A stretch of DNA of 64,000 nucleotides from Candidatus Iainarchaeum sp. (GCA_028702895.1 JAQVNZ010000001.1:36235-100234); one strand, 5' to 3'; positions 21,301-63,507 are shown, counted from the first letter of the stretch. The notes: generated by a model not told the origin, from the letters alone. Translations and numbers: made by a program.

Positions 21301-21389
21301 GGGCCCGTGTGGCAATGGATAACCGGCGGGACTTCGGAAAAATTAGTTGAAGTTATCCTGAGATGGGGGTTCGATTCCCTCCGGGCCCG
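21301..21389 (+). tRNA. tRNA-Arg(UCG) with a short intron of about 17 nt
   Basis: The elements are:
- Acceptor GGGCCCG/CGGGCCC with discriminator G.
- Anticodon stem CGGGA/TCCTG and loop CTTCGG..
- T arm GGGGG-TTCGATT-CCCTC.
- BHB junction: central helix CTTC/GAAG (perfect), bulges GGA and TTA.
The track ORF 21208..21402 overlapping it is spurious. Confidence 0.75.
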
Positions 21390-31358: not shown

Positions 31359-31757
31359 CTAGTATTTTTTTAAGGTTATTATTTTTGACAAATTTATTGA
31401 AAATTCTAGTTCATTAGTTATTATTTGAGAAAAACAATTTAGTTTTCCTGTTGCGTTTTGATCTTTTAAAATATAATTTGGTTTATCGCAAGAGAGTACT
31501 GTGTCATCAAATATTAGTGTGTGTAAGTCAGTTGCTTTTTGATTAATACAAGTTTCTATTTCAGGATTTGATTTTTGCCAGTTACAATCCTGTATGGATT
31601 GATTTAATATTATTTCATAATTAGTTAAAATTATTTTTGTATTAGTTATTTGATTACTATAATCTGTAATTGAATAATTATTATTAATTCCTATGAATAA
31701 TATTGTGATAATCGTTACACTAAGTACTACTAGTATGGATACAAATCCTTTTTTCAT
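31359..31757 (-). CDS. Pilin-like protein (N-terminal class III signal/TM), last gene of the pilus locus
   Basis: MKKGFVSILVVLSVTIITILFIG is a basic-Gly N-terminus plus hydrophobic helix. The 4-nt overlap with the upstream gene suggests coupling. Confidence 0.5.
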   Translation of the reverse strand: MKKGFVSILVVLSVTIITILFIGINNNYSITDYSNQITNTKIILTNYEIILNQSIQDCNWQKSNPEIETCINQKATDLHTLIFDDTVLSCDKPNYILKDQNATGKLNCFSQIITNELEFSINLSKIITLKKY

Positions 31758-32023
31758 TCAAATCCCTCGCAGATAATATTTTTTTTAAATGTTTGTGTTG
31801 TGACATTGTATAAAATTATTTTATTACAAAAAAGATTATTTTTATCTATGTTAGTGTGTGTGGCCTGATAATAAATTGAATTCGTTTGATTGCTTTGAAT
31901 ATTTGTTAAAAAATTATTATTTTGATTAGTGTATTGGTTGGTGTTTGTGCCAATTATAATTAGGGTGCTTAACAAAATAATTATTGTTAATATCATTTCT
32001 ATTGAAAAAATAAATCCTTTCAT
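31754..32023 (-). CDS. Pilin-like protein (class III signal-like N-terminus)
   Basis: It begins MKGFIFSIEMILTIIILLSTLIII. It has 4-nt overlaps with both neighbours. Confidence 0.5.
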   Translation of the reverse strand: MKGFIFSIEMILTIIILLSTLIIIGTNTNQYTNQNNNFLTNIQSNQTNSIYYQATHTNIDKNNLFCNKIILYNVTTQTFKKNIICEGFE

Positions 32024-32493
32024 TTACTCACCATTAATTTTATATTTTTTTTAGGATATCTACACGCGTTACCAGCCAAACAATTGTTTAAGTCATTAAA
32101 AGTTATTTCTTCTGTACAGGTGAATATTTCGTTTTCAATAACAATTATTTCTTGTTGGTTAGAATTAATTTCGTTAAATTTTACTTCGTTACCTATTGTA
32201 AGTTTTATTTTGTTATTAATTAAGCCAATATCTTTTTTTAATTGATTAATATCTGTTAACATTGTTTCATTTAATGTAAATGCTAGTGTGGTATCTCCTA
32301 ATTTACAAGCATACTTATTATTTGTTAGTGCAATAAAAGATGAATTTGCTTTTTGTGAAAGAGTATCAAATTGTATTGTTTCATTATTTGTATTATTTTT
32401 TATTTCAAAAGTATTTAATAATAATCCAAAAAAGGTTATGCAAAGAACCATTGCAAGCAAAAAATCAATTGAAAAAATTTGGCCTTTAATCAT
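32020..32493 (-). CDS. Pilin-like protein with a KGQ class III signal motif
   Basis: It begins MIKGQIFSIDFLLAMVLCITFFGLLL. The KG|Q motif followed by a hydrophobic helix is the archaeal prepilin pattern. Confidence 0.6.
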   Translation of the reverse strand: MIKGQIFSIDFLLAMVLCITFFGLLLNTFEIKNNTNNETIQFDTLSQKANSSFIALTNNKYACKLGDTTLAFTLNETMLTDINQLKKDIGLINNKIKLTIGNEVKFNEINSNQQEIIVIENEIFTCTEEITFNDLNNCLAGNACRYPKKNIKLMVSK

Positions 32494-32863
32494 TTTTAAT
32501 CACCAAATAATTATTTTCAATAAAAATATTTTTTTTATTTTGTATTGTTGCGCTAGTTTTAAAATTAGTGTCTTTTATTTCTAAATATAAATAGTTTTCA
32601 TCAAAACTTATTATTGGTAAAATTTTTTGGTCATCAAAATTTAGTTCTTTTATTTTTACTAAAATATTATAATCAAAATCTTCTAGTGCTTCACTAGCAA
32701 TTATCAGTGATGCGTAATTATTAGTATTTATTTTTAATTCATTTTCAATAGCAATTAATTTGTGGTTGTTTAATATTTCTCCAAAAATTATTGTTGTTGA
32801 ACTAATAAAAATAAGGAGTGCAATTATTGTTAATATTAAATCAATACTTATTTGGCCTTTCAT
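32486..32863 (-). CDS. Pilin-like protein with a KGQ class III signal motif
   Basis: It begins MKGQISIDLILTIIALLIFISS. It overlaps the downstream gene by 8 nt. Confidence 0.6.
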   Translation of the reverse strand: MKGQISIDLILTIIALLIFISSTTIIFGEILNNHKLIAIENELKINTNNYASLIIASEALEDFDYNILVKIKELNFDDQKILPIISFDENYLYLEIKDTNFKTSATIQNKKNIFIENNYLVIKND

Positions 32864-33267: not shown

Positions 33268-34443
33268 TTATATTAATTGGAAAAGATAGAAAAATAGGAC
33301 TGGTATGATTAAAAAACCTAGACAAGTACTTCGTTTTATTTTTGTTTGAATAGTTATTAGTCCTAATGCTGTTGAAAAAACTAATGCGATAAAACCAATT
33401 AATCCATTAAAAAAAATAACTAATATTATAATAAATATTATAATTATTTTTTCTAATAAATTTTTTTCTTGTAATTTCATAAAAAAATTATTTTTTGTTT
33501 TTGCGATTTTTTTAGATAAATAAATAGTTATTATTCCTGCGATTCCTGCGGATATTAATATTGTTGCGCAACCTAAAAAAATTGTTTGATCTGTTAAAAT
33601 AATTTTTTCTTTTAAAAATACCATTGCGCCGTTTCTTGTTTTTGATAAAAATAATAAAACAGGTATTGAAAATATAAAATTGCTCGTGTTAATACTTCCT
33701 AATAATACTAAATAATTTTTTGTTTTTATTTTTTGTCTAAATATTCTTATTATTGCAGCCGCTAAATTATTTCCTATTCCTGGAACAAATGCTACTATTG
33801 CGCCTCCAATAATTCCTGTTATTGCATCAATTGTTTTATTTTTTTCAATGTTAAAATTTGTTTGTTGTGTTTTTGTAATTGGTTTTTTTATTGTAGAATT
33901 TATTAGTGTTGAAATTCCAAAGTACCCGCTTATCAATGGGAATATTTGGTTAGTAAAAATCATTCCGTGTGTTGCTGAAATAATTATTATTATCATTGCG
34001 AGAATTTTTTTATTTCTAGTTTTTTCTGTTAGAATTAAAACGAGTGTGGAAAAAATTAGTATGATTGGAATAATTATTTCAAAATTAGTTGGAAAAAATT
34101 CTATGAATTTAATAAAAAATGGGAAACACATTATGGATACTATTGTGGCAATAATTCCCCCAAATACGGTTAAACTTATTGCTTCGTGTCCTTTTCCTTC
34201 TAAAAACATTTTGTGTCCGGGTAGTATTCCTTCAAAAGAACTTTCTCCTGCTGCCCCAATAAAAATGGTTGGAATAAAGTCTACAAAACTTTGTGTTGTT
34301 ACCATGCTTAATACAAATATTAGCGCTTCGTTTCCAAATAAGGGTGTTAGAAAAGCAATTTGAGTTATATTGTTGGTGTGTATTCCAGGTATTAATCCTG
34401 CGATGGTGCCCATTATTATTCCTAATATTAGATAAAGAATCAT
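33268..34443 (-). CDS. Polytopic membrane protein, TctA/DUF112-like
   Basis: It has about 10-11 TM segments. GLIPGIHTNNI and VAFVPGIGNNLAAAI resemble the repeated G.lPG(l/i)g motif of the TctA/DUF112 family as I recall it. The gap to the JAMM gene is 3 nt. Confidence 0.5.
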   Translation of the reverse strand: MILYLILGIIMGTIAGLIPGIHTNNITQIAFLTPLFGNEALIFVLSMVTTQSFVDFIPTIFIGAAGESSFEGILPGHKMFLEGKGHEAISLTVFGGIIATIVSIMCFPFFIKFIEFFPTNFEIIIPIILIFSTLVLILTEKTRNKKILAMIIIIISATHGMIFTNQIFPLISGYFGISTLINSTIKKPITKTQQTNFNIEKNKTIDAITGIIGGAIVAFVPGIGNNLAAAIIRIFRQKIKTKNYLVLLGSINTSNFIFSIPVLLFLSKTRNGAMVFLKEKIILTDQTIFLGCATILISAGIAGIITIYLSKKIAKTKNNFFMKLQEKNLLEKIIIIFIIILVIFFNGLIGFIALVFSTALGLITIQTKIKRSTCLGFLIIPVLFFYLFQLI

Positions 34444-34769
34444 TTTTTTATCACTTTTAGTGCTAATAATTCTATTTCGTTATTATATTGGGTAGTTTCA
34501 CCGTATACCTCTACCTTATCACCAATTTGTATTTCAAATTTTTTTGAATAAAATACTTTTATTTTTTCTTCGTTTTGTAGAATAAAAATTAGGGGTTCTT
34601 CACGTAGAATATAATCTACTCTTCCAATTACTATTCCTTTACTACCTATAGTTGAATGCATTTCGCTAATTGTTTTTTCCTTAAATTCTTCTTCGTAAAA
34701 TATTATGAAAACAAAAAGGCCAATAATTGTTATTAGAATACAAATTTGTATTAAATGTCTTTCTTGCAT
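34440..34769 (-). CDS. Membrane-anchored OB-fold-like protein
   Basis: An N-terminal TM (LIQICILITIIGLFVFIIF) is followed by a beta-rich segment (GIVIGRVDYILREEPLIFILQNEEKIKVFYSKKFEIQIGDKVEVYGETTQYNNEIELL). That segment resembles tRNA_anti-type OB folds. The call is weak. Confidence 0.4.
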   Translation of the reverse strand: MQERHLIQICILITIIGLFVFIIFYEEEFKEKTISEMHSTIGSKGIVIGRVDYILREEPLIFILQNEEKIKVFYSKKFEIQIGDKVEVYGETTQYNNEIELLALKVIKK

Positions 34770-34868: not shown

Positions 34869-36785
34869 TCAAGGCTTACATTTTGTAAAGTTAGGTTGTT
34901 TTAAAGGTTGATTTTCAAGCGGGGAATATGAAAAAGCCCATGAACATTTAATTACTTTTGATACATTCCATTTGTTAATATCTTGATTAAACTGCGAGTC
35001 AGAAAACATTTGTTCCATGTTTGTTACGTTGATTGTATTCCAATCATTAATTGGGTGATTAAATTTCGAATGCCAAAACATAAATTTCATTGTTGTTACA
35101 TTGCGTGTGTTCCAGTTTTCGATTGGTTGGTTGAAGTCTGAATATGAAAACATGTTTTCCATTGTTGTTACGTTGCTTGTGTTCCAATTGCTAATGTCTT
35201 GATTGAATTTAGAATGGTCAAACATTGAAGCCATATTTGTTACGTTGCTTGTGTTCCAATCGCTAATATGTCCGTTGAATTGTGATTCATGAAACATTGC
35301 GTACATATTTGTTACTTTGCTTGTGTCCCAATTGTTTATATTTTGATTAAATTTTGAACCGTAAAACATTCCAAACATGTTTGTTACGTTGCGTGTATCC
35401 CAGTTATTTAGAGGGTAATTGTATGGTGAATATATGAACATATATTGCATATTTGTTACGTTGATTGTATTCCAATCATTAATTGGGTGATTAAATTTTG
35501 CTGCCCAAAACATGTTCTGCATATTTGTTACGCTGCTTGTATTCCAGTTATTTATTGGCTGGTTGAAATCTGAATATACAAACATTGCGAACATGTTTGT
35601 TACTTTGCTTGTGTTCCAATTACTAATATCTTGATTGAATTTAGAACTATTAAACATTTCACTCATCGTGGTTACGTTGCTTGTGTTCCAATTGCTAATA
35701 TCTTGATTAAATGTAGCGCCACCAAACATTGAAGCCATATTTGTTACGTTGCTTGTGTTCCAATTGCTTATGTTTCCGTTGAATTGAGAATTACTAAACA
35801 TCCCATTCATATTTGTTACATTGCCCGTATTCCAATTATTAATATTTTGATTAAATCGTGAATTAGCAAACATTTTTTCCATATTGGTAATATTCTTTGA
35901 GGCATCATCAAAAAAATCTGGACAAGAAACTTGTGTTAGAGTAGTGTTTGCAAACATGCTTCGTGCTGACGTTAATCCCGTAACCGAATTACTAACTGGT
36001 GTGTGAATATCTTTTAACATTTCCCCACTATTTTCAAAGGAGATTCTACTTGCTTTTCCTTTTAAAGAAATATTATAATCTCCTGGAGTGGGATAGGTTT
36101 TTATTTGTGTATCTCCAGGGGGTAAATTCACCCAACCCTGTCCTAATCCCCAGTCAACTTCCATTCCTTGAGCGCCATAAATAATAAATTGAAATTGTTC
36201 ATTATTTTTTGTAGTTTTTATTTGGAATGTAAATGGGGGTGTTGGTTTATCGGGGTCTATTAGGGGTTTTCCACATTTTCCTAGATAATTCGTATCTGTT
36301 CCTGCTTTTATAGCATAGCAACGATTATCATAAGTATTTCCGTCCAAACCACAAACCGGGATAGTGCCCGCGTTTAAACAATCGTCTTCTTCTGGTATTT
36401 CTGGATCGTCTGGCTCTGGTTCGCCAGTATAATTATTATTTAATATTATTTGCGAATTTTTAAAATTAGTAAATTTTCCTATTTTTTCTACTATTTTTTT
36501 TAAGTCAAAATAGTTATTATCTATTGTTGGGGGAATAGTTTGAACAAAAAATTTTGGTATTTCATTTTCTTCAACAAAAATATTTTGGATTATAACATTC
36601 TCGTTTTTTTGGTTTGATTGAACTAATAATTCACTTCGTATTAGCGTATATGCGTTTGTAACATTATATGTATTTAAAAAAAAGGATGATAAAATTATTG
36701 TAAATGTTATAATAACTAAAAGTATTATTAAACTTTCAAACGAAACTTGCCCTTTATTAAATATTTTTTTTTTCAATATAATCAA
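34869..36785 (-). CDS. Pilin-anchored surface protein: class III signal + Kazal-like domain + 13 DUF285/BspA-like repeats (putative adhesin)
   Basis: The N-terminus is KKIFNKGQVSFESLIILLVIITF. An acidic P/E linker follows, then a Kazal-like segment (CLNAGTIPVCGLDGNTYDNRCYAIKAGTDTNYLGKCG, nt 36273-36380). After that come 13 tandem 24-aa units with consensus MF..S.FNQ.I..WNTSNVTNM... The start is TTG, forming a TTGA overlap with the upstream gene. Confidence 0.75.
   Translation of the reverse strand: MIILKKKIFNKGQVSFESLIILLVIITFTIILSSFFLNTYNVTNAYTLIRSELLVQSNQKNENVIIQNIFVEENEIPKFFVQTIPPTIDNNYFDLKKIVEKIGKFTNFKNSQIILNNNYTGEPEPDDPEIPEEDDCLNAGTIPVCGLDGNTYDNRCYAIKAGTDTNYLGKCGKPLIDPDKPTPPFTFQIKTTKNNEQFQFIIYGAQGMEVDWGLGQGWVNLPPGDTQIKTYPTPGDYNISLKGKASRISFENSGEMLKDIHTPVSNSVTGLTSARSMFANTTLTQVSCPDFFDDASKNITNMEKMFANSRFNQNINNWNTGNVTNMNGMFSNSQFNGNISNWNTSNVTNMASMFGGATFNQDISNWNTSNVTTMSEMFNSSKFNQDISNWNTSKVTNMFAMFVYSDFNQPINNWNTSSVTNMQNMFWAAKFNHPINDWNTINVTNMQYMFIYSPYNYPLNNWDTRNVTNMFGMFYGSKFNQNINNWDTSKVTNMYAMFHESQFNGHISDWNTSNVTNMASMFDHSKFNQDISNWNTSNVTTMENMFSYSDFNQPIENWNTRNVTTMKFMFWHSKFNHPINDWNTINVTNMEQMFSDSQFNQDINKWNVSKVIKCSWAFSYSPLENQPLKQPNFTKCKP
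34938..35873 (-). repeat. Intragenic 72-nt (24-aa) tandem repeat array, 13 units, with a higher-order block duplication
   Basis: The units start at about aa 305 and run to aa 616 of the adhesin. Long near-identical DNA stretches recur at an offset of 432 nt (6 units), for example 35021-35080 versus 35453-35512. At protein level, units 2, 3, 5, 6 pair with units 9, 10, 11, 12. Confidence 0.85.
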
Positions 36786-37234
36786 CTACTTGTTATTGAA
36801 ATTTTATTAGAGTCTGTTTTTTCTATAACAATTGTTTTTATTCCATAATCAATAACATTTTCTGTACAATCAAGGGTTATTCCATTTCTTACCATAAATG
36901 TTTTTTTACAAATATTGTTTTCACAAAGATTAACATTTGTGTTATTGCCTGTTTTATTAATTTGTACTTCAAATTCAAAATTATTGGCACAGTTAATTTT
37001 TGTGTTATTTGGTATAAAAAGAGTTATTGTTTCTTTTGATCCTGTTCCCAATAAAGATATTTTATTAGTTATTTGCGTTAATTGTTGTGTTGCTAAATTA
37101 GCTTTTGAAATATTTTCAATATCTTCTATTATTCCTTGAGTATTTTCTATGATTGGTTTTGTTACTCCAAAAATATATATTATTAGTATTAATATTATGA
37201 AAATAAATTCTATTGTTGCTTGCCCTTTTTGCAT
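36782..37234 (-). CDS. Pilin-like protein with a KGQ class III signal motif (150 aa)
   Basis: It begins MQKGQATIEFIFIILILIIYIFG. The body is N/T-rich with 4 Cys. Confidence 0.6.
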   Translation of the reverse strand: MQKGQATIEFIFIILILIIYIFGVTKPIIENTQGIIEDIENISKANLATQQLTQITNKISLLGTGSKETITLFIPNNTKINCANNFEFEVQINKTGNNTNVNLCENNICKKTFMVRNGITLDCTENVIDYGIKTIVIEKTDSNKISITSS

Positions 37235-37242
37235 TCTTTCAC

Positions 37243-38334
37243 CTATATACTTAATATTAAGTTTATTATAAAATCTCCTAAAATAACACTTAGGATATAA
37301 CCTAAGAGTATTGTTGGAACAAACGGAATAGAATCTTTAATTAAAATAGTTTTTTCAATTAATCCTTGTTTTGATAATTTTTTTAATTCTTTTATTTCTT
37401 GTATTGTTAATCCGCATGCCCTCATTGAGGATATTATTTCTTTTTCTGAATTTAGCGTATTTTCTTTTATTTGTTTTATAATTTCCTTTAAACTTAATTT
37501 TTCTTTTATAATAACTTTTTTTCCTTTCCAAATTAGTGTTATTCCTGGTATCATTCCTTCTTTAAGATTTTTTATTAAAACTTTTTTTGACATTAAAATT
37601 TTCATTGAGGTCATTAGTTTTATTAATCCAAATAAAATAACTATGATTATTGTTAATGATAAAAGATTTTTAAAAAACATTTGATAATTTAAAAAAATTC
37701 CGATTATCATGCTTATGCTTGTTAATATAATTTTGTTTTTATTTAAAAAATTCCAAACAAAAAGAAAAATAAAAACTAAAAATATTTCTATAACGGTGTT
37801 TTGGATAAATAAATTTATTATAATATAACTTCCTGATAAAAAAAATGCTGTGTGTATTGCAATAATCGTATTTTTCTTCATGTCAAAAAATATTTTTTTT
37901 CTTTCTGTTTTATTATTTAATAATTTATATACTATGACAACTATCCCGTATGGCATGAATGCTATTAGTGAATATAAAAAAAGACTTATTGGAAATATGG
38001 GTAGGCTTGAATTTGTTAATAATCCAATTTTGATTAATGCGGGGGTGAACGGATTTAATGCGCCTAATGCCATGAATAATTTTACGTCTCCTCCAGCAAA
38101 AACTCCTAATTTCCATAATATCCAACCAAAAGAAAATCCAATACATAATCCAAGAAAAGAGTAGATTATTGGATAAATATTTAATTCAATTATTGATTGT
38201 ATTGCATAAATTGTTAGGCCAAGTATTGCTAATCCAAAATTTAATTTGTTTGGAACAATTCGTTCTTTTAAATCAGTGTATGTTGCGATTATTAATCCGA
38301 TAATGGAAATAATTATGGTTGTAATGAAAATCAT
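37243..38334 (-). CDS. Prepilin/preflagellin peptidase (A24 aspartyl protease; EppA/PibD/FlaK-like)
   Basis: Two catalytic Asp contexts are present: YTDLKERIVPN (D21) and FAGGDVKLFMALGA (D83, GxGD-like). The protein is multi-TM, with a soluble segment at about aa 246-334 and a terminal IPFVPTILLG. Confidence 0.8.
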   Translation of the reverse strand: MIFITTIIISIIGLIIATYTDLKERIVPNKLNFGLAILGLTIYAIQSIIELNIYPIIYSFLGLCIGFSFGWILWKLGVFAGGDVKLFMALGALNPFTPALIKIGLLTNSSLPIFPISLFLYSLIAFMPYGIVVIVYKLLNNKTERKKIFFDMKKNTIIAIHTAFFLSGSYIIINLFIQNTVIEIFLVFIFLFVWNFLNKNKIILTSISMIIGIFLNYQMFFKNLLSLTIIIVILFGLIKLMTSMKILMSKKVLIKNLKEGMIPGITLIWKGKKVIIKEKLSLKEIIKQIKENTLNSEKEIISSMRACGLTIQEIKELKKLSKQGLIEKTILIKDSIPFVPTILLGYILSVILGDFIINLILSI

Positions 38335-38681: not shown

Positions 38682-38963
38682 TTATGTGCAATCCCATTTT
38701 TCTCTTAAAATATATTGGTTTTTTTCACAACATATAGTTTGAGTTGCTCCGCCTTTATTAGTGTCATTAAGATAACATCCACAATCTAAAGTGTTTGAAT
38801 CTAGTGTTACACAAAGATAATTGTATGTGCTATTTGTTCCAGTATCTGTTCCTGTGCCTATTGCTTGTGAAACAAATATTATTACTACTGCTACTACAAG
38901 AATTACTGCTCCGATGATTAGTAAGTATTCTATGGATGTTTGTCCAGATTTTTTATCATTCAT
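38682..38963 (-). CDS. Short type IV pilin (93 aa), class III signal + Cys-rich head (7 Cys)
   Basis: MNDKKSGQTSIEYLLIIGAVILVVAVVIIFVS carries the Q..(I/V)EYLL pattern of Epd-type pilins as I recall it. The head is ...YLCVTLDSNTLDCGCYLNDTNKGGATQTICCEKNQ..WDC. Confidence 0.8.
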   Translation of the reverse strand: MNDKKSGQTSIEYLLIIGAVILVVAVVIIFVSQAIGTGTDTGTNSTYNYLCVTLDSNTLDCGCYLNDTNKGGATQTICCEKNQYILREKWDCT

Positions 38964-39038
38964 ATTATATATAACAATATTTTTGTATTTAAAGTTTTGT
39001 TATTTTTAAAATATTGTTTTATTATTTTTTAATTATTA

Positions 39039-39317
39039 TTAGGGTGTAATATTAAAGTCCTTGCATTTGTTTGGCCAACCTGTCATATTGGTTAGTGTGC
39101 ATTTATTATTTGCCCAATTCCCGCCTGTTAACATGCATTCTTTTTGACATTCTAGTATTAGTGTGGTGTCTCCAATTTTTTCATCATTTAATGAGTCGGT
39201 TCCACTACTTGTTACGCCTACCATTGAGATTACAACAATTGCTACTACTAGTATTGCTGCGCCCATTATTAGTAAGTATTCTACAGCACCTTGTGCGTTT
39301 TCTTTTTTATAATCCAT
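39039..39317 (-). CDS. Short type IV pilin (92 aa), class III signal + Cys-rich head (4 Cys)
   Basis: The N-terminus is MDYKKENAQGAVEYLLIMGAAILVVAIVVISMVG. The head is ECQKECMLTGGNWANNKCTLTNMTGWPNKC. Confidence 0.8.
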   Translation of the reverse strand: MDYKKENAQGAVEYLLIMGAAILVVAIVVISMVGVTSSGTDSLNDEKIGDTTLILECQKECMLTGGNWANNKCTLTNMTGWPNKCKDFNITP

Positions 39318-39372
39318 TACTAATAGTTTACTTTAGCACTATTTAAATGTTTTTTATTTTTAAAAAAAGTAA

Positions 39373-39397
39373 TTGAAAAGGCGAAAGGCCTTTTCAA
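39373..39397 (-). terminator. Perfect 10-bp hairpin plus T-run, 13 nt downstream of pilin gene 39410..39667
   Basis: TTGAAAAGGC-GAAAG-GCCTTTTCAA is conspicuously GC-rich for this DNA. On the minus-strand transcript it is followed by ..TTACTTTTTTT. Confidence 0.55.
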
Positions 39398-39409
39398 AAT
39401 TTAATCTAA

Positions 39410-39667
39410 TCAGTTGTATGATGTACAATCGTAGTTGCCGCTAGGTACTATTGTTCCACTACATGTTTGATTTATTGAATTCCAATCAAATTTTTGATTC
39501 AAACAATCAACTTGGCATTTTTGTAGTGTTGGTAATTGGTCTACGTCAGTTCCGTCTGTTGCTCCTGAAGTTACACTAACTAATGCAATTATTACAACTG
39601 CTACAACAAGTATTGCTGCTCCGATGATTAGTAAGTATTCTATTGCTCCTTGTCCTGTTCTATCCAT
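39410..39667 (-). CDS. Short type IV pilin (85 aa), class III signal + Cys-rich head; candidate major pilin
   Basis: The N-terminus is MDRTGQGAIEYLLIIGAAILVVAVVIIALVS. The head is KCQVDCLNQKFDWNSINQTCSG....NYDC. A strong SD (GGAGGGG) precedes it, a long upstream spacer separates it from the previous gene, and it has its own hairpin terminator. Confidence 0.8.
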   Translation of the reverse strand: MDRTGQGAIEYLLIIGAAILVVAVVIIALVSVTSGATDGTDVDQLPTLQKCQVDCLNQKFDWNSINQTCSGTIVPSGNYDCTSYN

Positions 39668-39840: not shown

Positions 39841-39978
39841 TTATTGATTAATATCTTTTATTGCTTGTGTTGCAGATTGTGCAGTTGTTTTAATATATAT
39901 TGAAACCGTTGTTACCACAAATATTGCGCCAACGATTATTAGCAAATATTCTAAACTTGTCTGAGCTTTTTCATCCAT
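39841..39978 (-). CDS. Mini-pilin (45 aa) with a class III signal, no head domain
   Basis: The hand-translated sequence is MDEKAQTSLEYLLIIVGAIFVVTTVSIYIKTTAQSATQAIKDINQ. Its ATG overlaps the stop of the platform gene (TAATG), which suggests coupling. It is absent from the ORF track. Confidence 0.6.
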   Translation of the reverse strand: MDEKAQTSLEYLLIIVGAIFVVTTVSIYIKTTAQSATQAIKDINQ

Positions 39979-40886
39979 TAAAAAACACCTAGTAACATTA
40001 AACTAATTAAATAATTTGTTGCATAATATGTTACAAATGCTATTAGTATTAGTATTGGGATATATATAATACTTTTTCCAAATTTACCTTCTCTTATTAT
40101 AGACATCATTATTCCTGATGCGATTACTTCTATTATTAAATATGCTTGGATTAATAATAACATAAAATTAGATACGCTGGTTGTGTTATTAGCACTTCCT
40201 CCGACTAATTGTGTTATTGTGATTTGTGAGAATAAATTCATTATAGCAGTTATTTCTCCAAATATTAATGGGGTTATTATTCCTCCTGCTGCAATCATGA
40301 ACATGAATTGCATTGTAGTATTCGCTTTTCTCTCTTCTTTTAATCTATATGATTCTCTAACATCATCTGAAATATCTTCTAGTATTCCTGATAAGCTTGC
40401 ACCGGTTTTTATTGAATCAAGTAATACTGTGATTGTTCGTTTTACTAATTTAGAGTCAATTCTTTCTGCAAATCCTCGTAGGGAAGTGTCAATATTTTCT
40501 CCTTCCTCTAATCTAATTAATGCGATTTGCATTTCGTCTGATAATCTACCATATCCTGCGATTACAACTTCTCGTAAAGCACTCTCATAAGTGTCTCCTG
40601 CTTTGAGCGTGTCGGCCATTTGTTTTAATGCATCACTAAAATTATATTCTATTGAATCAATTATTGATTCTTTTTTCATGTAAGGGTATCCTAACATTAG
40701 TATTAGTGTTGCTGAAGTAAACGCTACTGGGAGTAAAGTAATTTCTTTTAATATTAACATATTTAAAATTAATGTTATAAATGCTACAAATAGAGTTGTT
40801 GCTAGTGTTAAACTAGCCCATACTTTTGAATTATATGGTAATTTTGCAAATCTTACCCAATTATCATATTTTGTTATTATATCCAT
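39978..40886 (-). CDS. Pilus platform membrane protein, single T2SS-F domain (EpdJ/K, TadB/C-like)
   Basis: It has the T2SS-F cytoplasmic domain pattern (DALKQMADTLKAGDTYESALREVV...YGRLSDEMQIALIRLEEGENIDTSLRGFAERI) flanked by TM segments. Confidence 0.75.
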   Translation of the reverse strand: MDIITKYDNWVRFAKLPYNSKVWASLTLATTLFVAFITLILNMLILKEITLLPVAFTSATLILMLGYPYMKKESIIDSIEYNFSDALKQMADTLKAGDTYESALREVVIAGYGRLSDEMQIALIRLEEGENIDTSLRGFAERIDSKLVKRTITVLLDSIKTGASLSGILEDISDDVRESYRLKEERKANTTMQFMFMIAAGGIITPLIFGEITAIMNLFSQITITQLVGGSANNTTSVSNFMLLLIQAYLIIEVIASGIMMSIIREGKFGKSIIYIPILILIAFVTYYATNYLISLMLLGVF

Positions 40887-40891
40887 TTAAA

Positions 40892-41986
40892 TCACATTTT
40901 TGGTTGTGCTGCATAAACCATGTATATCATTATTCCAAATACAATTGGCATAAAAATAATATAAATAAAAAACATTACTTCTGGTGTTAATGGAATGTTT
41001 TTGAATAAATCTTCTCCGGTTGTGGCGATTGGAGAATTTCTAATTGATCCTAGTATCATTACTGCTACTGGTAAAACTATTCCTACAAAAATAAATATTA
41101 CTGAAAAAAAATTCATTTGCTGTGAAAAAATTCCTATTCGGTTTCTCATTTCGGATGAAACATCTTCTGCAATATCATTCATTGTTTCAGATAAATTTCC
41201 GCCTATTCGCATAGCTCTTAAAATATGGTTAATTGTTTTTCGTAGTGGCATACTCTGCGTTCTTAGCGCAGTGTGTTTTAATGCTGTTGTAGTATCTGCA
41301 CCTTCTTCAATTTCATTTATGGTTCTAGAAAATTCTTCGCTTAAAACACCATAATCATTAATTGCAATTGCTTGTATTGTTTTATATAATCCAATTCCTG
41401 CTTTTAATTCTGTTGCCATGTGTCTTAGTGCAAATGGTAGTTCAGTAGATATTTTTGCACCCCTGTTTTTTGCAAGGTTTTTTGGAATTGTTAAAATAAA
41501 TATTGTTGAAATTACCCACATGATAAATCCAAGTAAGATGGGGAGGGTGGCTGCAAACAAAAGATCTTGTAATAATATTCCTATAAAAAAAACTATTATT
41601 ATTGTTGTTAGTGCAATTATAAATCCTGCTGCACTTGCTAATGCTAAATATTGATTTGGAGAATATCTTAAATTTGCAGAGTATAAATAGTATCCTATTT
41701 CATTACTTAATGGAAAATTTTGTAAAAAGTTTTTTATAGGATTTAATATTTTTTTTAATTTTAAATAAATGTTTCCAAGTGTTTTTGTTAAATTTGATCC
41801 AAATTGGTCTAAATCTTCTTCACTATTTAAATCAATTTTAGAATAAGAATTATCTAGGATTATTCCTCTTAATTCTTTTAAACTAGTATTCGCGTCTTCT
41901 ACTTCTATTCCTTCGTCTCTATATTTTTTTTTCATTGTTTCAACGATTTTACTTACTTCTTCTTCGTTTATAGAACTATTTTTCAT
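40892..41986 (-). CDS. Pilus platform membrane protein, single T2SS-F domain (second subunit)
   Basis: LPFALRHMATELKAGIGLYKTIQAIA.NDYGVLSEEFSRTINEIEEGADTTTALKHTA.RT.S..LRKTI..I is a T2SS-F domain. TM segments flank it. Confidence 0.75.
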   Translation of the reverse strand: MKNSSINEEEVSKIVETMKKKYRDEGIEVEDANTSLKELRGIILDNSYSKIDLNSEEDLDQFGSNLTKTLGNIYLKLKKILNPIKNFLQNFPLSNEIGYYLYSANLRYSPNQYLALASAAGFIIALTTIIIVFFIGILLQDLLFAATLPILLGFIMWVISTIFILTIPKNLAKNRGAKISTELPFALRHMATELKAGIGLYKTIQAIAINDYGVLSEEFSRTINEIEEGADTTTALKHTALRTQSMPLRKTINHILRAMRIGGNLSETMNDIAEDVSSEMRNRIGIFSQQMNFFSVIFIFVGIVLPVAVMILGSIRNSPIATTGEDLFKNIPLTPEVMFFIYIIFMPIVFGIMIYMVYAAQPKM

Positions 41987-43647
41987 TATTTTTCACCAAA
42001 ATTTCTTTTGCTAATAAAATCTTGTGATAGTTTACTAACTTCTTTTAATTCGCGAATATTGTTTTCAACAAGATTTTCTATAAATTGTTTTCTTAAATAT
42101 AATTCGGCTTCAAGTTGATCTCTTGATAATCCTGTAAAATCTCTTAATTGACTTAAATAATTACTGTCAACTATTGTTCTTTCTAAATAATCTTTTACTG
42201 CGTCTCTTTGAAATAATGTTTGTGTTTTTGGGTTGCCTTCTATTCCTCCATATACTTCTGCGATCTCACTTATTCGTCTAATTGTTCCTTTCTTTTTATC
42301 ATGATATCTGTGTTCTACTATTATTATGTCAAGCCCAGATAACATTATTTTTGGAACATTCATTGGCGGGTTAGTTACTCGTACTATTGTTTCTTCTGGA
42401 GAATTAGCATGAACCGTTCCTAGACAACCATCATGCCCTGTATTAATAGCAGTAAATAACGTGAATGCTTCTTCGTGTCTTACTTCTCCAACTATTATTC
42501 TATCGGGTCTCATTCTCAAAGAATTTTTTGTTAAAATATCCATTTTTAATTCACCTGATCCTTCAAGTCCGGGTGGTCTAGCTTCTAATCTAATCCAATG
42601 TTTTAAGGGTAAATTTAATTCGGCCGTGTCTTCAATAGTAACTATTCTTTCTCTTTCTGGTATGAATGATGCTAGTACATTTAAGAGTGTAGTTTTTCCT
42701 GATCCTGTTCCACCACTAATAAGCATGTTCGCTGGTTTTGTTCCTAGTCCATCAACACTTACCCATAGGAATGCTGCTGCTTCGCTACTTAGTGTTCCCA
42801 TTCTAACTAAATCAATTATTGAATAAGGGTCTTTACGAAATTTTCTTATTGTTAGTGTTCCTCCACTAATACTTGCAGGGGGGATTGTGGCATTAATTCT
42901 ACTTCCATCAGTTAATCTTGCGTCTAATAAAGGCGCTGATACATCTACTCTTCTTCCAACTTCTCTAGCAATTTTATTTATTAAATCCTCTATTTCTTGT
43001 TCTGAAAAAAATTCTATGTTAGTTTGCATCATTTCAAATTCTCTATGAAAAACAAAAACAGGTTTTTTTGGCCCAACAATCATTATCTCTTCTAATTGAT
43101 CGTCTTTTATTAGGTCATCTATTAATCCATATCCAACCATTTCTCTTACAACTGCGTCAGCGTAAAATGATATTCTTGTTGGGGGAATATTTAGTGATGG
43201 ATTATTTCTTATGATATCTAATATTTTTTGTTTATAGATTATTCGTCTCTCATCATTATTTCTTATTCTAAATGGTGCAATACTAATTAGTCTTGTTGTT
43301 GCTTCTTTTATTGTATTAATTATTTTTCTTTCAGCGGAGGTGGGTCTTAGTGTTGGAACAAAATAATATTTTAGTGCTTTGCCAGGGATTTCATAAATAG
43401 TTGTTTTATCATATTTTTTTAATTCTATTTTTTTCTCTTTTTCTAATTCTTTTTCAACTTCTGTTTTTTCTTTTCCAGATGGTTCGATTTCTAATTTTTG
43501 ATCTATTTCGCTGTTAATTTGTTCTTCAAATTCTTTTAAATCTTCTTTTTTTATTTCTTTTGCAACAGTTTCTTCAATATCTTCTTCGTTTTTTATTGAT
43601 TGTGCTTTTGTACTTTTCATTAAGTCTTCTAAATAATCAGTTGCCAT
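41986..43647 (-). CDS. Pilus assembly ATPase (FlaI/PilB/TadA/EpdL-like)
   Basis: It contains LLDARLTDGSRINATIPP...GTLTIRKF, Walker A SGGTGSGKTT, IEDTAEL, RMRPDRIIVGEVRHEEA and GHDGCLGTVHAN. The N-terminal ~90 aa are acidic coiled coil. Confidence 0.85.
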   Translation of the reverse strand: MATDYLEDLMKSTKAQSIKNEEDIEETVAKEIKKEDLKEFEEQINSEIDQKLEIEPSGKEKTEVEKELEKEKKIELKKYDKTTIYEIPGKALKYYFVPTLRPTSAERKIINTIKEATTRLISIAPFRIRNNDERRIIYKQKILDIIRNNPSLNIPPTRISFYADAVVREMVGYGLIDDLIKDDQLEEIMIVGPKKPVFVFHREFEMMQTNIEFFSEQEIEDLINKIAREVGRRVDVSAPLLDARLTDGSRINATIPPASISGGTLTIRKFRKDPYSIIDLVRMGTLSSEAAAFLWVSVDGLGTKPANMLISGGTGSGKTTLLNVLASFIPERERIVTIEDTAELNLPLKHWIRLEARPPGLEGSGELKMDILTKNSLRMRPDRIIVGEVRHEEAFTLFTAINTGHDGCLGTVHANSPEETIVRVTNPPMNVPKIMLSGLDIIIVEHRYHDKKKGTIRRISEIAEVYGGIEGNPKTQTLFQRDAVKDYLERTIVDSNYLSQLRDFTGLSRDQLEAELYLRKQFIENLVENNIRELKEVSKLSQDFISKRNFGEK

Positions 43648-62917: not shown

Positions 62918-63097
62918 ATGAGTAATGTTTTATTAGAAGAAAAAGCACAAATTTCAGTAGAACTAATAATTGTCCTTGCGGCGGTTGTTGCAGTAGTTTT
63001 AGTTCTTGTAAGTCAGTTACAAGCAACATCTTCACAAGGAGCCCAAAAATTAGAAAAAACTGCTGGTGACGTGTTCAAAAAAATTGATGATATATGA
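62918..63097 (+). CDS. Mini-pilin (59 aa) with a class III signal (second pilin cluster)
   Basis: The hand-translated sequence is MSNVLLEEKAQISVELIIVLAAVVAVVLVLVSQLQATSSQGAQKLEKTAGDVFKKIDDI. It has the same AQ....E(Y/L)(L/I) design as the mini-pilins at 38469 and 39841. It forms an ATGA overlap with the next gene. Confidence 0.6.
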   Translation: MSNVLLEEKAQISVELIIVLAAVVAVVLVLVSQLQATSSQGAQKLEKTAGDVFKKIDDI

Positions 63098-63507
63098 ATT
63101 CAATTATGTGTACTAAGAAAAAAGGGCAAGTTTCGTTAGAATACTTGATTTTAATTGCTGCTTTTTTCTCAGCTTTATTAATAATAATTCCAACAATAAA
63201 TCTCATTGTAAATGATTTTTTGATAATGAATGATTCTTTATTATTAAAACAAATTTCTGAAAAAATTTCTGAACAAGATAAATTATTTGTTTTTTTAGGA
63301 GATGGATCTAGAAAAGAATTTGAATTTTTTTCAACAAAAGAAATTTTATTAAAAACAAGTGGAAAAAATTTTATTTTATCAAATTCAAAAACGAATCTTT
63401 CTGTTCTATTGTATTCTAATCAAATCACGAATGAAAAAAATTTCGATTCTAAATTTAAAATAATAATTGAAAAAATTAATGGTGAAACAAAAATATTATT
63501 TGAATGA
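63094..63507 (+). CDS. Pilin-like protein with a KGQ class III signal
   Basis: It begins MNSIMCTKKKGQVSLEYLILIAAFFSALLIIIP. Confidence 0.55.
   Translation: MNSIMCTKKKGQVSLEYLILIAAFFSALLIIIPTINLIVNDFLIMNDSLLLKQISEKISEQDKLFVFLGDGSRKEFEFFSTKEILLKTSGKNFILSNSKTNLSVLLYSNQITNEKNFDSKFKIIIEKINGETKILFE

Follow-up and report, generated by a model that had tools for sequence, protein, structure and literature searches.

How does a protein come to combine an archaeal prepilin-type leader, a domain of the Kazal fold and a long repeat solenoid of bacterial type, and what could such a protein do at the cell surface? The question is raised by one gene in a 64,000-nucleotide stretch of Candidatus Iainarchaeum sp. 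DNA (GCA_028702895.1, JAQVNZ010000001.1:36235-100234; hereafter the window, numbered from its first letter). Its product consists, in this order, of a class III leader with a pilin module of ~110 amino acids (aa), an acidic Pro-rich linker, a four-Cys Kazal fold, a beta-sandwich and 13 repeats of the DUF285 family (Table 1). An original prediction, made from the sequence alone, had described a four-part chimeric pilin and pointed to a DPANN archaeon; all parts are present where it had placed them, the Kazal frame exactly at nt 36273-36380, and exact look-ups place the window on a 100,649-bp contig of a metagenome-assembled genome (MAG) of Candidatus Iainarchaeum, the Iainarchaeota being part of the DPANN group. 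What it had missed is that the gene is a conserved minor pilin bearing a compositionally foreign grafted module.

By exact look-up, the 635-aa product corresponds to NCBI record MDD4250651.1, 'BspA family leucine-rich repeat surface protein [Candidatus ainarchaeum sp.]', 'BspA family' being NCBI's product name for DUF285 proteins. The public record stops at this name, which leaves an annotation gap: the pilin and Kazal modules escape threshold-based annotation. According to NCBI and the gene callers, translation starts at the second TTG, 36776, and the product begins MKKKIFNKGQVSFE; the TTG at 36785, taken as the start in the original prediction, makes the frame three codons longer and the product 638 aa. 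The 635-aa form is on record in the protein collection and the 638-aa form is absent from it (exact look-up), and no contig encoding either complete product was found by exact look-up. Residues are numbered here in the 635-aa form.

A conserved minor pilin with a foreign C-terminal module

We compared the pilin part of the protein with its relatives. A profile search of 5.8 billion proteins returned 19 members of its family, 18 of which are stand-alone proteins of 107-117 aa and the last a 171-aa fragment of the gene itself; no other extended member was found among the 19. The pilin module is 41-47% identical to these stand-alone pilins, and in a HMMER search with aa 1-184 against 1.84 billion representatives, stand-alone proteins of 107-113 aa matched aa 9-116 with 42-44% identity. 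Note that a word-indexed search with the pilin module alone returned only the fragment of the same gene, and that it was the distant-hit profile that recovered the family. A genome scan with the neighbouring peptidase gave a single relative, and a metagenome scan with aa 1-303 gave no close relative.

Three related genomes share the order peptidase, 150-aa gene, short pilin, OB-fold gene, TctA and JAB: L003 (GCA_964619405.1), where the pilin has 113 aa, L007 (GCA_003556695.1), where it has 109 aa, and L015, from an uncultured archaeon. The pilin open reading frame (ORF) of L015 enters masked bases after 86 aa, and this pilin must be short too, because the following gene begins only ~150 nt further on. 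The short pilins stop right after a conserved I-x-I-N motif, exactly where the window protein goes on with NNNYTG-EPEPDDPEIPEEDD.

The two sides of this point also differ in codon usage. The GC content at third codon positions (GC3, Met and Trp codons left aside) amounts to 0.120 in the pilin part, as compared to 0.117 ± 0.019 for the 29 other genes of the window, and rises to 0.276 in the linker and Kazal part and to 0.276 in the repeats, giving 0.246 for the whole graft (z = 6.6). In the graft, AAC goes from 18% to 38% of Asn codons and TTC from 8% to 24% of Phe codons. Beyond the Kazal domain, the protein from aa ~176 to the C-terminus aligns as one unit, with 37-51% identity, with beta-sandwich/repeat modules of bacterial and some archaeal DUF285 proteins. 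As the short family members, the short syntenic pilins, the foreign GC3 and this unit-wise alignment all agree, they show the ~520 C-terminal residues (~1.55 kb) to be a graft, fused in frame at the natural C-terminus of the pilin. The simplest reading is a horizontally acquired cassette fused 3′, in frame, to a conserved minor pilin. The graft event can be reconstructed from an ancestor-like gene in relatives, an exact fusion point and foreign codon usage, and offers a clean natural example of a type IV pilus acquiring a new head.

The N-terminus belongs to a pilin of an Epd-like operon

The DUF285 assignment is settled by profile alone; the class III and Kazal parts score below their Pfam thresholds and therefore needed more evidence. 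For the N-terminus, this evidence comes from the leader, from the orthologues and from the operon, in agreement with the class III pilin start proposed earlier. In EppA substrates, a short basic leader of 5-13 residues has Gly as its last residue and is followed by Gln +1 and Glu +5 (PMC3875500); the leader of the window protein fits this pattern in length, terminal Gly, Gln +1 and Glu +5. The leader end runs directly into a hydrophobic segment (NKG/QVSFESLIILLVIITF, the slash marking the predicted cleavage), such that the mature N-terminus would read QVSFE SLIILLVIITFTIIL, in line with the hydrophobic helix of ~20 residues expected in an archaeal type IV pilin. G9, Q10, S12, E14 and a T-I-P motif are invariant in the alignment of the pilin family (A1), and one orthologue, P0162, scores above the Pfam Class_IIIsignal threshold (25.6 bits). 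The N_methyl motif (IPR012902) gave no Pfam match in the 635-aa protein, the leader being of the archaeal Gln+1 type. AlphaFold2, run with the pilin homologues, predicts a 44-residue helix (13-56) followed by strands 62-69, 75-81 and 109-112, with a predicted local distance difference test score (pLDDT) of 82-96.

Among the pilin genes of a complete Epd-like type IV pilus operon, this one comes last; the operon lies on one strand, with prepilin peptidase, assembly ATPase and platform proteins within 7 kb, and all seven other pilin-like genes of the operon carry the [GA]/Q-x-x-x-E motif. On this basis, the N-terminus is that of a pilin rather than a plain membrane anchor, with cleavage and assembly predicted.

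A Kazal fold with an atypical reactive-site loop

The segment that follows the linker carries the core Kazal signature within the motif C-x8-PVCG-x-DG-x-TY-x-N-x-C ... C. It scores 18.8 bits with Kazal_2 (PF07648; cut-off 22.8) and 18.3 bits with Kazal_1 (PF00050; cut-off 21), i.e. below threshold in both cases. In phmmer/HMMER scans, more than 1000 Kazal proteins, mostly with many copies of the domain, match aa ~142-173, with E-values of 1e-14 to 6e-55 for multi-Kazal proteins; those sampled are called Kazal_1/Kazal_2 by Pfam, with E-values down to 5e-160. A family profile built from the window domain and 41 homologous segments retrieves silk protease inhibitor 2 (4e-18), rhodniin (1e-17), LDTI (8e-17) and ovomucoid among solved structures. 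When aa 123-177 are modelled alone, AlphaFold2 predicts a Kazal fold, with two short strands, a central helix and a third strand (pLDDT 84.7), and the 50 best Foldseek matches of this model in the PDB are all Kazal domains; the very small size of the domain keeps their E-values weak (0.04 or higher). The best match is GmSPI-2 (4hgu; 44% identity, root mean square deviation (rmsd) 1.2 Å), and LDTI superposes with an rmsd of 0.6 Å at 45% identity. Membership at the level of the fold is thus well supported.

The classical six-Cys form with three disulfides is not what we found: the domain has four Cys, from the pattern of which two disulfides are expected. The absent Cys are the C1-C5 partners, such that the loss is a coherent one, of an entire disulfide. 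Between C2 and C3 lie 8 residues, where 97% of 807 homologous domains have 7, and the P2′-equivalent residue is Thr, where 76% of the same domains have an aromatic residue. The reactive-site loop is therefore atypical, departing from the canonical loop, and 'protease-inhibitor-like' is a statement on fold, not on function. The Kazal-like segment of the original prediction stands in this sense, supported by profile, AlphaFold2 and Foldseek. Kazal and DUF285 were not found combined elsewhere: a Kazal motif occurs in 0 of the 120 best DUF285 matches and DUF285 motifs in 0 of 149 Kazal matches.

Thirteen DUF285 units and an old block duplication

The repeat region matches DUF285 (PF03382) with E=3e-180 and 589 bits (cut-off 25) and the PARCEL repeat (NCBIfam TIGR02167) with 174.9 bits (cut-off 30) over 13 stretches, and Tandem Repeats Finder gives 12.8 copies of a 72-nt period; the thirteen repeats claimed earlier are indeed there, as in-register units of 24 aa, in keeping with the PARCEL plan of tandem ~25-residue units in which hydrophobic positions are conserved and hydrophilic ones vary. 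Membership of the true BspA/LRR_5 family (PF13306) was rejected, LRR_5 not being among the Pfam families with E ≤ 1. Ahead of the units lies a beta-sandwich, at which the BLASTP alignments to bacterial DUF285 proteins begin. Structure prediction, proposed as a check together with that of the Kazal domain, gives a regular solenoid over aa ~270-620 (AlphaFold2, pLDDT 97-98), preceded by the beta-sandwich (aa 182-248) at pLDDT ~56-71. Note that the full-length model was built without the Kazal rows, as a combined alignment (A3) misplaced the Kazal segments (2-14% identity) and was dropped; residues 118-180 are of low confidence in it for this reason, and the Kazal domain was modelled separately.

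We then compared the units with each other at the DNA level. Identity between the stretches 35021-35080 and 35453-35512 is 92%, with an exact match of 47 nt. Between units, the background is 68 ± 5% identity, which is exceeded (z = 1.4 to 3.7) by the pairs 2 and 9 (85%), 3 and 10 (81%), 4 and 8 (82%), 5 and 11 (75%) and 6 and 12 (86%). These pairs indicate that a higher-order duplication of a block of four to five units, as predicted from the comparison of the repeats, is real. It had been described as recent, with near-identical stretches at a single offset of 432 nt; this offset holds for units 5-6 versus 11-12, and that of units 2-3 versus 9-10 is 504 nt. At the block level, identity is 81-83%, with both synonymous and non-synonymous differences, and since the paired units have diverged by 14-25% in nucleotides, the duplication is old and a recent event was rejected. 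If the locus does expand and contract, as the original prediction suggested, an in-frame step of six units by way of the 47-nt exact match would be a candidate route. The dyad symmetry of the coding DNA to which the 'palindromic' in PARCEL refers is only weakly visible, as short, imperfect inverted repeats (14-21 nt, 76-86% complementary), several of them around AAACATGTTT.

N-glycosylation of exported proteins is found in many archaea. The 635-aa protein contains 24 N-x-S/T sequons, 19 of which lie within the repeats (WNTSNVT), such that a bacterial-type module on a modular pilin would meet heavy glycosylation if the organism N-glycosylates its exported proteins.

The fusion in independent assemblies

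A pilin joined to a bacterial DUF285 protein could also arise as a chimera of assembly, and a repeat array could be collapsed or expanded; the foreign codon usage of the graft would fit such an artefact. We therefore examined Logan k=31 short-read assemblies of other sequencing runs. Contig L002 (SRR22315503) matches the window at 100% identity from the platform gene, across pilin, linker, Kazal domain and beta-sandwich, up to 35735, the end of unit 2. A variant with 99.7% identity (L001, SRR34068994) covers the pilin-Kazal junction and extends past the Kazal domain, and at least 7 further contigs or samples, with 99.6-99.98% identity, span the 3′ junction from unit 12 into the downstream genes. 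The Iainarchaeota population turns up in at least 8 public sequencing runs. An assembly chimera was rejected, as both fusion junctions are covered by independent contigs.

All k=31 assemblies break within the repeats. Five of the seven contigs compared end at window position 35049, because the 47-nt exact repeat makes 31-mers ambiguous, and units 3-12 are therefore seen only in the window's own assembly. Collapse of the array is unlikely, since divergence between units is 14-40% and a normal read exceeds the longest exact repeat in length; the frame is open throughout. Taking both sides together, an artefactual origin of the fusion or of the array appears extremely improbable.

A proposed pilus-borne binding head and its alternatives

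We consider, with moderate confidence, that the gene encodes a modular minor pilin of the Epd-like type IV pilus of Candidatus Iainarchaeum, of the kind named 'system 1' among archaeal type IV filaments (TFF), with a binding head displayed at the tip. According to this proposal, the neighbouring EppA-like peptidase would cut the leader after Gly9 and the hydrophobic helix would dock the subunit into the filament, most probably at its tip; this placement follows from the analogy with modular pilins and from the 520-aa load, which would otherwise hinder packing in the shaft. The acidic Pro-rich linker and the disulfide-locked Kazal unit, most likely a small protease-resistant spacer, would space the solenoid away from the filament and hold it out as a binding head for a ligand on a surface or on a partner cell. 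The most likely function would be that of a pilus-presented, probably tip-located, adhesin.

Several observations weigh against this proposal. Archaeal class III signal peptides occur also on proteins that do not form filaments. The leader scores 12.2 bits with Class_IIIsignal (PF04021, DUF361/UPF0333), below the cut-off of 23.7, and a PDB sequence search with the pilin profile gave no solved match. For the graft, Foldseek with the full-length model returned nothing significant, its weak matches being to LRR proteins (LGR4 ectodomain, best E=0.058) and beta-sandwiches, and phmmer with the DUF285 part against the PDB gave no solved relative. To our knowledge, no function has been demonstrated for any DUF285 module, and the label 'adhesin' is drawn from surface location and repeat architecture. 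Finally, the copy number of units 3-12 rests on one assembly.

One question is whether the protein enters a filament at all. Leader and helix could instead export the Kazal-DUF285 part and anchor it at the membrane, or support a short pseudopilus or bindosome-like assembly: the archaeal type IV pilus literature counts the Sulfolobales bindosome among class III-dependent systems, some archaeal substrate-binding proteins with class III signal peptides behave in this way, a bulky load of 520 aa could hinder incorporation, and the measurements made here fit a tip subunit and a membrane-retained pilin alike. We hold such display without a filament to be unlikely, as the module, whose full globular head is kept in the AlphaFold2 model, is orthologous to a conserved small pilin with a fixed operon position, and as modular pilins of characterised structure are modelled to assemble into pili, the tip being their most probable place. 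What the solenoid does there may also be seen differently. The founding paper goes no further than to describe DUF285/PARCEL repeats as variable, amphipathic domains of the surface that spread by horizontal transfer, from which self-recognition or aggregation within the population, or a variable decoy surface, might be proposed in place of adhesion; with the module mounted on a pilin whose gene closes a pilus operon, and ligand binding being the common theme of characterised modular pilins, this seems rather improbable.

The Kazal unit raises a separate choice, between a spacer and a working serine-protease inhibitor that would shield the adhesin and filament from subtilisin-like proteases, or use a surface protease of a partner as receptor, inhibition then being what the fusion is for. 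The fold itself speaks for the latter, as does GmSPI-2, the closest solved structure, which has four Cys and two disulfides and strongly inhibits subtilisin and proteinase K. Against it are the lengthened C2-C3 loop, the Thr in place of an aromatic residue and the sub-threshold Pfam scores, and Kazal/follistatin-type domains also occur in the non-inhibitory proteins agrin and follistatin, both among the profile matches. That the unit still inhibits a subtilisin-type serine protease is possible, if on balance doubtful, and the shielding or receptor role built on it is to be taken as tentative, a shade less probable again. An active Kazal unit and the solenoid might even form a two-part tip head that takes hold of a subtilisin-like protease on the surface of a partner or host cell, or resists the secreted proteases of a partner. 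This would be a protease-inhibitor-armed pilus, gained by a DPANN archaeon in a single horizontal graft, and it is a long shot, less probable than any of the preceding alternatives on head or membrane. The tip-displayed binding head with a Kazal spacer is the reading that we retain, and it makes the gene a candidate for surface or partner recognition in DPANN.

Comparison with known systems

Modular pilins are an established class, of which over 1,200 bacterial proteins are known, in 264 architectures (Raynaud et al, 2021, PMC8179133). Like PilB and PilC of Streptococcus sanguinis, the window protein has a small N-terminal pilin module, a short linker and a bulky grafted module of a kind not particular to pilus biology (PMC8179133), and for the two streptococcal proteins, tip presentation is predicted and the role is ligand binding (PMC8179133). 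Whereas PilB and PilC are bacterial, with the N-methylation motif IPR012902, by which the published set was defined, and vWA or lectin modules, the window protein is archaeal, with an EppA-type leader and a Kazal, beta-sandwich and DUF285 load, and its ungrafted ancestral state is still visible in its relatives.

Bacterial pilins with DUF285 (IPR005046; PMC2996958) have been listed before: in Dataset S1 of Raynaud et al (2021), the combination IPR012902-IPR005046 occurs in 9 proteins with one IPR005046 and 4 with three, and our homologue search found a bacterial protein of 1071 aa (P0041) with N_methyl and DUF285. These share the plan of a pilin N-terminus followed by DUF285, but belong to another domain of life and another pilin class and are devoid of Kazal. 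A Kazal domain on a pilin has 0 occurrences in Dataset S1, and we found no relevant co-mention of Kazal and pilin in the literature. The novelty claimed in the original prediction, for an inhibitor-like module and a repeat solenoid on a pilin, thus narrows to the Kazal domain and the archaeal setting, which were not found elsewhere; the window protein is an archaeal, three-module variant of a known modular-pilin design. It extends the modular-pilin idea to archaeal EppA-type pilins and places DUF285/PARCEL on an archaeal pilus subunit.

The Epd pilus of Methanococcus is marked by a peptidase of its own, two platform genes and many pilins, and a 2026 preprint names such an arrangement 'system 1', found in methanogens and DPANN. 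The window operon resembles the Epd system of Methanococcus maripaludis in its dedicated EppA-type peptidase, two platform proteins, several minor pilins and Gly/Gln+1, Glu+5 leaders; the Epd minor pilins, as described in papers, are without DUF285 or Kazal modules, unlike the window protein.

The Kazal domain has the four-Cys, two-disulfide pattern of GmSPI-2 (4hgu/2m5x). GmSPI-2 and LDTI (1an1) are free secreted animal inhibitors of proven activity, whereas the window domain is internal, with a loop one residue longer and no P2′ aromatic residue. In a 2026 survey, Kazal-type is among the rare, mostly singleton fold groups that within Archaea occur only in DPANN, and the survey attributes such groups to horizontal transfer or classification artefacts. 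The repeat is the same 24-26-residue unit as in the PARCEL/DUF285 lipoproteins of Mycoplasma and in the 'BspA family' of Bacteroidota, with 37-55% identity across the entire beta-sandwich and solenoid; these proteins have lipoprotein or Sec signals or type IX secretion system (T9SS) C-terminal domains, whereas here it is pilin-borne. In 2010, no archaeal genome with a PARCEL repeat was known (PMC2996958).

The syntenic operon of GCA_964619405.1 (L003 1328-5377) encodes, among small pilin genes, another modular pilin, of 1349 aa, with a class III N-terminus (...LA/QTAIEYLL...) and three ~400-aa Peptidase_M26_N/GLUG-like copies. It comes from the same lineage and kind of operon, but the extended pilin is of the small 'AQ..EYLL' type and its module is not Kazal-DUF285. 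Because this relative carries a different modular pilin, grafting onto pilins seems recurrent in the lineage. Separately, a DPANN 'BspA family' DUF285 protein of 1035 aa (P0021, Candidatus Nanoarchaeia MAG) begins MKKSVSPLIATVLLIAFTVAIG..., which by eye resembles the other archaeal pilin-type leader (DUF1628-like), with no Pfam match there; should the resemblance hold, DPANN would have gained pilin-DUF285 fusions on more than one occasion.

Features of the locus and neighbouring genes

Table 1. Features of the modular-pilin gene and of its operon (window coordinates)
Feature	Coordinates	Strand	Evidence or remark
Modular-pilin coding sequence	34869..36776	-	635 aa, TTG start; alternative TTG at 36785
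Class III (prepilin-type) leader MKKKIFNKG, 9 residues	36750..36776	-	Predicted cleavage G/Q; Gln +1, Glu +5
Pilin module, aa 10-117	36426..36749	-	Long N-terminal helix, then small beta head
Acidic Pro-rich linker EPEPDDPEIPEEDD, aa 119-132	36381..36422	-	Graft start; AlphaFold2 pLDDT < 50
Kazal-fold domain, four Cys, aa C133-C168	36273..36380	-	Cys correspond to Kazal C2, C3, C4, C6
Beta-sandwich, usual N-terminal part of DUF285 proteins	36027..36272	-	PKD 17.3 bits (weak); AlphaFold2 strands 182-248
Degenerate N-terminal cap units of solenoid, aa 251-300	35877..36026	-	AlphaFold2 model and DUF285-homologue alignments
13 tandem 24-aa DUF285/PARCEL units, aa 301-612	34941..35876	-	Pattern xMFxxxxFNQxIxxWNTSNVTNMx, in register
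C-terminal cap, aa 613-635	34872..34940	-	Cys 633; Cys 611 sits at the end of unit 13
Longest exact intragenic repeat, 47 nt	35020..35066 and 35452..35498		k=31 assemblies break here
150-aa pilin-like protein (MQKG/QATIE), upstream of the modular pilin	36782..37234	-	Adjoins the pilin in all relatives examined
EppA-like prepilin peptidase, A24 and archaeal C-terminal domains	37243..38334	-	Peptidase_A24 1.3e-15, Arc_PepC, Arc_PepC_II
Five small pilin genes, 45-93 aa	38469..39978	-	[GA]/Q-x-x-x-E class III leader on each
Two T2SSF-family platform protein genes	39978..41986	-	Pfam T2SSF 1.3e-15 and 2.9e-20
Type IV filament assembly ATPase	41986..43647	-	Pfam T2SSE 2.8e-44; NCBI 'CpaF family protein'

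The stop codon of the 150-aa gene (36782-36784) sits between the two TTG candidates of the modular pilin, so that the two ORFs adjoin or share a few bases. Against NCBIfam, the peptidase gives weak matches to FlaK and to EppA (36 bits for EppA, cut-off 450). Three of the small pilins, of 85-93 aa (38682-39667, minus strand), have Cys-rich C-terminal heads with 6-8 Cys, e.g. ...CVTLDSNTLDCGCYLND...TICCEKNQ...WDC, which suggests disulfide-stabilised pilin heads in a very AT-rich archaeon.

Directly after the modular-pilin gene, at 33268-34769 (minus strand), lie an OB-fold gene (~109 aa), a TctA-family permease and a Prok-JAB gene. The order OB-fold, TctA, JAB is kept after the pilin in L003, L007 and L015, and these genes are flanked by groups of pilin-like genes. 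Downstream of TctA/JAB, at 31359-32863 (minus strand), we observed three to four small ORFs (125, 157, ~89 and 132 aa) with no Pfam match, the first of which begins MKG/QISID, followed by a hydrophobic stretch; their counterparts in L015 (6124-7683) all have pilin-like N-termini. The pilus locus may thus extend across the TctA/JAB genes.

Far from the operon, a second pair of class III genes is present at 62918-63097 and 63094-63507 (plus strand), with the N-termini MSNVLLEEKA/QISVE... and ...KKKG/QVSLEYL...; the 137-aa protein of this pair is above the Pfam Class_IIIsignal threshold (29.1 bits). Lastly, an 89-nt tRNA at 21301-21389 (plus strand), found by Rfam with 43.3 bits and not reported by ARAGORN, may be an intron-containing archaeal tRNA.

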